In this document: positions 45,001 to 48,000 of the stretch, in pieces
How the letters are laid out: every line of letters begins with the position of its first letter
Position numbering within the stretch: the stretch's first letter is position 1
IMG/VR virus record: IMGVR_UViG_2872180393_000001
Length of the DNA stretch: 51,038 nt
Reading direction: 5' to 3' (one strand)
Source of the DNA: a virus
Taxonomy: Duplodnaviria; Heunggongvirae; Uroviricota; Caudoviricetes
Program-made: the position numbers

Positions 45001-48000
45001 AGGGGATTTCGTTAAAGCTGTATCAAAAGCCTTCCCGAAAAAAGTCGGTACGTGGGGTAACACGGAAACACCAAACGGTACGGTTACAGTCACCATCAGC
45101 GATGATCATAACTTTGACCGCCAGATTATTATTCCGCCCATTATTTTTAACGGTATAGCGTATGACGATCCGAGGAGCGGAAATAACCTAGGAGGCACGC
45201 GATACACGGGTTATGGTTTTGAAGTTCGCAAAAACGGCGTATTAATCGCATCCAGAGAAACTAAAGGGGCCATTCCCGGTAGTTACAGTGCAGTTATTGA
45301 TATGCCTAGTGGTGGTGGTAGCGTCACTCTGGAGTTTAAGATTTTCCAGAAAGGCAATCAGGGGGCAGGCAATATCACCGACTGTACGGTGATTGTGACC
45401 AAAAAAGCGGCTTCCGGCATCAGTATTCGTTGAAATTGTTATAACCCATATAAGGGCACCAGAAATGGTGTAATGCCGATCAGTTAAGGATCAGTTGACC
45501 GATCCAGTGGCTGTGTAAGAATCCGGAAACGCTCACTTGTTTCCGGATTTTTTTATGCACATTGGACAGGCTCTTGATCTGGTATCCCGTTACGATTCTC
45601 TGCGTAACCCACTGACTTCTCTGGGGGATTACCTCGACCCCGAACTCATCTCTCGTTGCCTTGCCGAATCAGGTACTGTAACGCTACGCAAGCGCCGTCT
45701 TCCCCTCGAAATGATGGTCTGGTGTATTGTTGGCATGGCGCTTGAGCGTAAAGAACCTCTTCACCAGATTGTGAATCGCCTGGACATCATGCTGCCAGGC
45801 AATCGCCCCTTCGTTGCCCCCAGTGCCGTTATTCAGGCCCGCCAGCGCCTGGGAAGTGAGGCTGTCCGCCGCGTGTTCACGAAAACAGCGCAGCTCTGGC
45901 ATAACGCCACGCCGCATCCGCACTGGTGCGGCCTGACCCTGCTGGCCATCGATGGTGTGTTCTGGCGCACACCGGATACACCAGAGAACGATGCAGCCTT
46001 CCCCCGCCAGACACATGCCGGGAACCCGGCGCTCTACCCGCAGGTCAAAATGGTCTGCCAGATGGAACTGACCAGCCATCTGCTGACGGCTGCAGCCTTC
46101 GGCACGATGAAGAACAGCGAAAATGAGCTTGCTGAGCAACTTATAGAACAAACCGGCGATAACACTCTGACGTTAATGGATAAAGGTTATTACTCACTGG
46201 GACTGTTAAATGCCTGGAGCCTGGCGGGAGAACACCGCCACTGGATGATACCTCTCAGAAAGGGAGCGCAATATGAAGAGCTCAGAAAACTGGGTAAAGG
46301 CGATCATCTGGTGAAGCTGAAAACCAGCCCGCAGGCACGAAAAAAGTGGCCGGGACTGGGAAATGAAGTGACAGCCCGCCTGCTGACCGTGACGCGCAAA
46401 GGAAAAGTCTGCCATCTGCTGACGTCGATGACGGACGCCATGCGCTTCCCCGGAGGAGAAATGGCGGATCTGTACAGTCATCGCTGGGAAATCGAACTGG
46501 GATACAGGGAGATAAAACAGACGATGCAACTGAGCAGGCTGACGCTGAGAAGTAAAAAGCCGGAACTTGTGGAGCAAGAGCTGTGGGGTGTCTTACTGGC
46601 TTATAATCTGGTGAGATATCAGATGATTAAAATGGCGGAACATCTGAAAGGTTACTGGCCGAATCAACTGAGTTTCTCAGAATCATGCGGAATGGTGATG
46701 AGAATGCTGATGACATTGCAGGGCGCTTCACCGGGACGTATACCGGAGCTGATGCGCGATCTTGCAAGTATGGGACAACTTGTGAAATTACCGACGAGAA
46801 GGGAAAGGGCCTTCCCGAGAGTGGTAAAGGAGAGGCCCTGGAAATACCCCACAGCCCCGAAAAAGAGCCAGTCAGTTGCTTAACTGACTGGCATTACACC
46901 AGAAATGGTGCCTTTTTTATTGCAGAAAAGCGAGAGGTAATTATGCGTAAACTTTATGCCGCCATTTTGTCCGCAGCCATTTGTCTGGCCGTATCCGGTG
47001 CGCCTGCATGGGCATCTGAACATCAGTCCACGCTGAGCTCGGGGTATCTTCATGCCTCGACGAACGTTCCCGGCAGTGATGATCTGAACGGGATTAACGT
47101 GAAATACCGTTATGAGTTTACGGACACGCTGGGGCTGGTGACGTCATTCAGCTATGCCAACGCTGAAGATGAGCAAAAAACGCATTACAGCGATACCTGC
47201 TGGCATGAGGATTCCGTGCGTAACCGCTGGTTCAGCGTGATGGCGGGGCCGTCTGTGCGCGTGAATGAATGGTTCAGCGCGTATGCGATGGCGGGCGTGG
47301 CTTACAGCCGTGTGTCGACCTTCTCCGGGGATTATCTCCGCGTAACTGACAACAAGGGGAAAACGCACGATGTGCTGACCGGAAGTGATGACGGCCGCCA
47401 CAGCAACACGTCTCTGGCGTGGGGAGCTGGCGTGCAGTTTAACCCGACCGAATCCGTGGCCGTTGACGTCGCTTATGAAGGCTCCGGCAGCGGTGACTGG
47501 CGTACCAACAGTTTCATCGTGGGTGTCGGTTATAAATTCTGATTAGCCAGGTAACACAGTGTTATGACAGCCCGCCGTTTCAGGCGGGCTTTTTGTGGGG
47601 TGAATATGGCAGTAAAGATTTCAGGTGTACTGAAAGATGGGGCGGGTAAACCTGTCGTAAATTGTGCGATTGAACTGCGGGCCAGAAGAACCAGTCCGAC
47701 CGTTGTGGCACACGTTGTTGCCACTTGCGTGACGGACAATAACGGTGCTTATGTGATTGAGGCTGAGCCGGGGTATTACGAGGTTGCGCTTCACTGTAAC
47801 GGCTGGCAGCCAACCCGTGTCGGGGATATTGATGTGGCACCGACTGATGCACCGGGGACACTGAACGCGTTTCTGAATGCACCAAAGGATGGTGATTTAC
47901 GTCCGGAGGTGATGAAGCGCTTTGAGGAAATGGTGGCGCAGGCGCAGCAGAGTGCCGGGGCTGCAGCCGGAAACGCACAGCAGACGGCGCAGGATGTGGC

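Follow-up and report, generated by a model that had tools for sequence, protein, structure and literature searches.

What does it mean that an insertion sequence (IS) lies immediately in front of a gene for lysogenic conversion? The question is raised by IMGVR_UViG_2872180393_000001, a stretch of viral DNA (Caudoviricetes) of 51,038 nucleotides (nt), which we call the window and always mean at its full length. In it a copy of IS4 separates the tail tip gene J from lom, which encodes an Ail/Lom outer-membrane protein. The initial annotation took the IS4 to have displaced the lom promoter region and suggested that lom expression might be altered, either by a promoter directed outwards from the element or by polarity. 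Our analysis leads to a different answer. Very probably, an intact IS4 moved into the J-lom terminator of a decaying lambdoid prophage, where it was sited by its own target preference and has had a modest effect on lom at most.

The IS4 copy is 1426 base pairs (bp) long and occupies 45471-46896, with its left terminal inverted repeat on the J side and its right one on the lom side. The two repeats, TAATGCCGATCAGTTAAG and TAATGCCAGTCAGTTAAG, are 18 bp long and imperfect, matching at 16 of 18 positions, and both begin TAATGCC. The left end, TAATGCCGATCAGTTAAGG, begins at 45471 and its inverted counterpart, …CTTAACTGACTGGCATTA, finishes at 46896. Both ends carry the -AATR- signature of the IS4 subgroup (PMC2266710, Table 1). 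Megablast gave 99.9% identity to E. coli loci annotated 'IS4-like element IS4 family transposase', and IS4 is carried by about half of the complete E. coli genomes (~2,480 of 5,426). Compared base by base, this copy and the annotated IS4 of K-12 MG1655 are equal in length and 99.5% identical, with seven substitutions and no insertions or deletions. The element at 45471-46896 is an ordinary, intact copy of the already known IS4, an isoform of the ISfinder IS4. The initial annotation had described a 1426-bp element with IS4-type ends and a transposase, and the ends, the length, the identity and the Pfam domains all bear this out. The interval it gave, 45457-46910, is exactly IS4 plus both direct repeats. 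It had also proposed checking the exact ends and the length of the duplication against an IS4 reference: the ends match those of the K-12 MG1655 copy and the duplication is 14 bp.

That duplication is a perfect 14-bp repeat, CACCAGAAATGGTG, which abuts the element at both ends, so the insertion between flanking direct repeats in the J-lom intergenic region is as originally described. The chance of a perfect abutting repeat of this length is about 4^-14. When IS4 and one repeat are removed, the J-lom spacer agrees with those of phage 434 and a prophage in E. coli VL7S7 at all 85 nt compared. A reconstructed empty site of 600 bp aligns with the VL7S7 prophage without gaps at 99.0% identity, and phages 434 and mEp460 match it too. 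The same type of J-lom junction is present in ~1,990 of the 5,426 complete E. coli genomes. Because the empty sites of 434 and VL7S7 hold one copy of the 14-mer, the two copies in the window are a target-site duplication and not an older repeat. The C and the G that bound the duplication lie outside IS4, because the base adjoining TAATGCC…/…GGCATTA varies among other copies of the element. We read the IS4 at 45471-46896 as the product of a genuine transposition event, for which the true empty site is known.

The next question is what stood at this site before IS4 arrived. The displaced lom promoter region of the initial annotation finds no support here: the duplicated 14 bp are the core of a hairpin and T-run that the annotations of phages 434 and mEp460 call a terminator. 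In 434 the annotated terminator in the J-lom spacer reads GGCACCAGAAATGGTGCCTTTTTTATT (OL657226.1 18940-18966), and in mEp460 the equivalent stretch, GGCGTCAGGAATGACGCCTTTTTTATT, carries a rho-independent terminator annotation (JQ182728.1 18380-18406). The stem is GGCACC/GGTGCC in the window and 434 and GGCGTC/GACGCC in mEp460, so that the changes are compensatory, and lambda has another hairpin and T-run at the same J-lom position. The reconstructed, uninterrupted hairpin, which U6 follows, has a folding energy of -15.6 kcal/mol (z = -3.65), and the duplication, CACC-AGAAAT-GGTG, lies symmetrically across its dyad axis. IS4 has split what is predicted to be the rho-independent terminator between J and lom. 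On the left a partial hairpin is left behind (Table 1); on the right 46897-46910 and the following CCTTTTTT make up a 5-bp stem of ~-6.4 kcal/mol that retains the U-run.

Why IS4 should be found in a terminator becomes clearer from its other insertion sites. Junction searches matched about 20 bp of flank beside IS4 copies at unrelated loci, and the three that we inspected are sites of the same kind: one between rraA and zapB, AAAAAAGG[CACCGCAAGGTG]CCTTTTTT, with a 12-bp duplication, one between manD and argH, with a 13-bp duplication, and one on an IncHI plasmid, with an 11-bp duplication. For a wider survey, IS4 left ends were taken from GTDB representative genomes, IMG/VR and metagenome contigs, and those sites with both ends were reconstructed. 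A duplication flanked 34 of the 49 distinct complete copies; its length was 11 bp (6 sites), 12 bp (11), 13 bp (12) or 14 bp (5). Collapsing of strands left 33 distinct sites, and at 28 of these the duplication begins with C and finishes with G. An A-run lies no more than 12 nt upstream at 23 of the 33 sites, compared with 17% of random positions, and a T-run lies downstream at 25, compared with 16%; the two occur together at 16 sites, compared with 2.6%. The mean hairpin energy was -10.2 kcal/mol at IS4 sites and -3.7 kcal/mol at random positions. Duplication length followed the spacing of A-run and T-run weakly (Spearman 0.49, p = 0.054, n = 16), and we do not claim a relation. A paper by Mayaux et al. 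on the IS4 target site in the pheST attenuator is said to give the consensus AAA-N20-TTT. The window site, ATAAGGG[CACCAGAAATGGTG]CCTTTTTT, fits both the pattern in our survey and the target preference stated for the IS4 subgroup (PMC2266710). This preference, in which an A-run and a T-run flank a C…G palindrome, is in our view what explains the position of the insertion.

The remaining 15 of the 49 distinct complete copies had no target duplication, and the flanks of several of them are halves of different recognisable sites. These copies include L022, L038, L084, L086, L109, L125, L139 and L153, and also L195, L196, L198, L200, L201 and others. They are consistent with recombination between IS4 copies and with rearrangements. 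One further locus, L039, a 265-bp contig in an assembly of Methylobacterium mesophilicum (NZ_BPQU01000128.1), has an IS4 left end with exactly the flank found in K-12 MG1655, …ATAGTTTGTTACAAACACCAGAACCAAGAT, and most likely got into that assembly as contamination from E. coli K-12.

The J-lom terminator has been used by IS4 more than once. In a scan of IMG/VR for IS4 ends, three other prophage contigs carry the element within the same 14-bp duplication. In L057 (IMGVR_UViG_2874945390_000010) IS4 has the same orientation as in the window, and the two share 89.7% identity at the end of J, 94.1% in lom and 99.6% in IS4. In L063 (IMGVR_UViG_2537561977_000017) and L077 (IMGVR_UViG_2896595138_000011) IS4 is in the opposite orientation and the C-termini of J differ from that of the window; lom is ~94% identical in all three contigs. 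Unlike the window, the L063 and L077 prophages have no IS600 in the side tail-fibre gene stf, and L077 also has none in tail gene L; the L057 fragment stops short of the IS600 sites. As the same 14 bp are occupied while the flanks have diverged, IS4 has targeted the J-lom terminator recurrently. It has been struck independently at least twice and probably three times. None of the 5,426 complete E. coli genomes has IS4 adjoining lom in either orientation, and the occupied junction, searched for as an exact 32-mer, was not found in GTDB species representatives or JGI metagenome contigs. What the initial annotation missed is that the location follows from the target preference of IS4 and that the site is a recurrent one.

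The insertion can be pictured as follows. IS4 would have entered the hairpin of the rho-independent J-lom terminator by DDE transposition of the cut-and-paste kind. It would have picked the site by its own preference, for a shape that is also that of an intrinsic terminator, and not because of lom. Staggered cuts 14 bp apart, symmetric about the dyad axis, would have led to the duplication of CACC-AGAAAT-GGTG. The native terminator would in this way have been divided: the hairpin on the left would lack a U-run, and the 5-bp stem on the right would keep one.

The element that arrived is apparently competent for transposition, as its ends and open reading frame (ORF) are intact and its duplication is perfect and undegraded. 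The transposase, InsG, is encoded by a single ORF without a frameshift, for which an alternative TTG start at 45537 would give a product of 448 amino acids (aa). Pfam recognises Nterm_IS4 (E = 3e-33) and DDE_Tnp_1 (E = 8e-32), the Y-2-R-3-E-6-K motif of the IS4 family lies at residues 307-321, and there are three aa changes from K-12 InsG (I243L, G304A and R326L). A consensus scan found a single promoter-like site on the + strand within 41900-47700. This is in the left end of IS4, at 45495-45522, and is the probable promoter of the transposase. A strong hairpin followed by T7 (45517-45558) overlaps the -10 of this putative promoter, so that only transcripts entering from outside would form it; transcription coming from J is predicted to stop there. 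To shield itself from outside transcription with such a hairpin is a classic strategy of an IS. The hairpin at the right end of IS4 (46867-46892) has no U-run on the + strand, and an Rfam scan of 45000-47700 found no family.

How, then, might lom be affected? Transcription from J would meet the IS4 hairpin and its U7, which are stronger than the native terminator, just before the start of the transposase gene. With these signals in its path, read-through from J to lom should be lower, except for late transcription antiterminated by Q; that would ignore the signals, a point which is moot in a defective prophage. The lom ATG is 60 bp past the stop codon of the co-oriented transposase gene, with only the weakened terminator between them, and transcripts from the transposase promoter could leave the right end of IS4 towards lom. 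The likeliest upstream source of lom transcripts would be this weak promoter, together with any native signal in the 32 bp that are retained between the right repeat and the lom ATG. A polarity or read-through effect on lom is possible, and the insertion is best taken as part of the decay that ISs bring about in the prophage, its effect on the gene being modest at most.

The lom gene itself is intact, and its product matches PF06316 (Ail_Lom) over positions 1-199 of 199 (E = 1e-124). The end of IS4 is 46 bp upstream of the ATG, and a tail-fibre gene follows lom. Expression in lysogens, which the initial annotation had assumed, has been reported for lambda (PMC7067206; PMC2147009), and the literature describes the lom promoter as poorly known and uncharacterised. 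The consensus scan found no + strand sigma-70-like site anywhere in J or the spacer. A relaxed scan, with 8/12 matches, spacers of 15-19 nt and an extended -10, found no sigma-70-like promoter in the 300 bp upstream of lom, whether the site was empty or occupied. There is no outward promoter-like site in the final 300 bp of IS4 and no hybrid -35/-10 across the junction; the outward promoter proposed in the initial annotation is thus not detectable at the right end of the element.

Intrinsic terminators bracket lom, the J-lom terminator upstream and the lom-stf terminator downstream, and the latter is also found in L004 (1560-1587) and L006 (1556-1581). Terminators on both sides are the layout of an insulated 'moron' cassette, and there is no recognisable promoter within the bracket.

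The alternative that fares best keeps the promoter at the centre. IS4 would have parted lom from a native promoter in the 3' end of J or in the spacer, so that polarity would silence the gene or an outward promoter at the right end of IS4 would drive it. In favour of this, lom is reported to be expressed in lambda lysogens, so that some promoter must exist, and everything upstream of -32 from the ATG has been moved away by 1440 bp, leaving between IS4 and the ATG 32 bp that are too short for a full promoter and leader. We nevertheless consider it unlikely. The scans found no sigma-70-like site on the + strand of J or the spacer from which lom could have been parted, no outward site in the final 300 bp of the element and no hybrid -35/-10; the disrupted sequence is annotated as a terminator and not as a promoter; and the lom promoter is unmapped in the literature. 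The presence of both IS4 orientations at the site also argues against an orientation-specific outward promoter that had been selected.

A related proposal starts from the recurrence. The J-lom terminator might be a genuine IS4 hotspot in the IS4-rich genomes of the Shigella type, whose occupation, in either orientation, rewires Lom expression by removing an insulating terminator; in the orientation seen in the window, lom may then be coupled to the transposase transcript. A side point is that the length of the duplications (11-14 bp) may be set by the distance between the two target arms, as opposed to a fixed stagger; each protomer of the IS4 transposase would then be positioned by its own arm. 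Taken as a whole, we regard this as distinctly unlikely.

It is very unlikely that the insertion is adaptive, with IS4 retained because loss of the terminator alters expression of Lom, as an adhesin or outer-membrane protein, in an invasive host of the Shigella type and with recurrence reflecting selection and not a hotspot. The same 14 bp have been occupied independently in diverged prophages, and lom has stayed intact where IS600 has broken neighbouring tail genes, as selection might have it. The site, however, fits the pattern found at unrelated terminators on chromosomes and plasmids, so recurrence is expected without selection. Both orientations are found, and IS4 stands beside lom in none of the 5,426 complete E. 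coli genomes, although ~1,990 have the junction and ~2,480 have IS4. An assembly artefact, or placement by recombination between IS4 copies, is scarcely credible: IS4-mediated rearrangements are common, to judge from the 15 of 49 copies without a duplication, but here the 14-bp duplication is perfect, the flanks are contiguous in relatives with an empty site and the same structure is present in a public complete chromosome, CP026846.1.

Insertion into the terminator by target preference remains the account we favour, and several points weigh against it. The lom promoter could be non-consensus or dependent on an activator, and so invisible to the scans; if such a promoter lay upstream of the insertion point, IS4 would have shifted it by 1440 bp. 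The left end of IS4 contains a promoter-like site that matches the consensus at just 9 of 12 positions. All the effects on transcription are predictions from sequence, and competence for transposition is judged from the intactness of the element. At 14 bp the duplication exceeds by 1 bp the range published for the IS4 subgroup, 10-13 bp or about one helical turn (PMC2266710), and the survey includes other cases of 14 bp.

The surroundings of the insertion fit a prophage in decay. The window is a whole lambdoid prophage, with genes for integrase (4-1071, minus strand), primase, terminase, portal, protease, capsid and tail. Its tail region is collinear with that of the IS-free VL7S7 prophage except for an IS600 in the minor tail gene L, the IS4, and an IS600 in the side tail-fibre gene. 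Two ORFs, 35326-37395 and 37464-38294, stand in place of a single tape-measure gene and match positions 287-745 and 773-1056, consecutive parts of phrog_24. With the IS600 hits and a split tape-measure gene, the prophage is defective. IS4 is one of at least five IS hits in it, the other four being IS600 (Table 1).

Table 1. Coordinates of IS4, its insertion site and other features of the window
Feature	Coordinates	Strand	Remarks
Tail tip gene J, 1165 aa, intact ORF	41936..45433	+	full length
Left remnant of J-lom terminator	45454..45470	+	hairpin ~-9.5 kcal/mol; U-run replaced by IS4 end
Left copy of 14-bp target-site duplication CACCAGAAATGGTG	45457..45470	.	single copy in 434 and VL7S7 empty sites
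Complete IS4 element	45471..46896	+	99.9% to annotated E. coli copies; 7 nt differences, no insertions or deletions vs K-12 MG1655
IS4 left terminal inverted repeat TAATGCCGATCAGTTAAG	45471..45488	+	16/18 positions match right end
Promoter-like site in IS4 left end, TTGACC, 16-nt spacer, TG-AAGAAT	45495..45522	+	consensus match
Strong hairpin then T7, directly before transposase ATG	45517..45558	+	-21 kcal/mol, z = -6.3
IS4 transposase InsG, 442 aa, intact	45555..46883	+	Nterm_IS4, DDE_Tnp_1, YREK; same direction as J and lom
IS4 right terminal inverted repeat TAATGCCAGTCAGTTAAG	46879..46896	-	in 11-bp hairpin 46867-46892
Right copy of 14-bp target-site duplication CACCAGAAATGGTG	46897..46910	.	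perfect repeat abutting IS4
lom, Ail/Lom outer-membrane beta-barrel, 199 aa, intact, upstream GAGAGG ribosome-binding site	46943..47542	+	Ail_Lom
Terminator-like hairpin and T-run, intact, downstream of lom	47569..47596	+	lom-stf terminator annotated in 434 and mEp460
IS600, four 100%-identical copies of 1264 bp	6328-7591, 23759-25022, 39183-40446, 48954-50217	+, +, -, -	annotated 'IS3-like element IS600 family transposase' in E. coli matches

Several further features of the prophage may be recorded here. Pairs of IS600 copies in inverted orientation could mediate inversions. In place of lambda-type O/P genes there is a replication protein of 968 aa of the primase/helicase type (phrog_510, phrog_239) at 13354-16260 on the + strand, and the replication module is therefore not that of lambda. 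Among public contigs the exact Lom protein is recorded in one, CP026846.1, a chromosome of 4.86 Mb, where an IpaH-type gene (LRR_TTSS and NEL E3 ligase) directly follows the tail-fibre genes of the prophage (L007 8097-8600; 51039 onward in window numbering). From the IS600, the IS4 and the adjacent ipaH-type gene we infer that the host was Shigella or enteroinvasive E. coli.

Beyond correct annotation the insertion has little importance: it records a further step in the decay of a prophage by ISs in a genome of the Shigella type. Were lom expression shown to change, the case would illustrate on a small scale how an IS can alter a gene of lysogenic conversion. The more general lesson concerns how such insertions are read. 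IS4 seeks terminator-like palindromes, which are located between genes, so that an IS4 'just upstream of a gene' usually reflects these palindromes and not the downstream gene itself. The element is already known, and what is mildly new is only the recurrent use of the J-lom terminator and the 14-bp duplications. The J-lom terminator is added as a repeatedly used IS4 target, and the observed range of IS4 duplications is extended to 14 bp.

The IS4 of K-12 (insG; NC_000913.3 4502090-4503515) is also 1426 bp long, with the same terminal inverted repeats and a 442-aa transposase with Nterm_IS4, DDE_Tnp_1 and YREK. It lies, however, in a non-hairpin site with a 12-bp duplication, CAGAACCAAGAT, whereas the IS4 in the window lies in a terminator hairpin with a duplication of 14 bp. 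The terminator of phage 434 is identical to the uninterrupted sequence reconstructed from the window, where IS4 divides it into two partial copies. The site between rraA and zapB (L001) has the same target shape, with identical GGCACC/GGTGCC arms cut at the same positions; the loop is 6 nt and the duplication 14 bp in the window, compared with 4 nt and 12 bp in L001.

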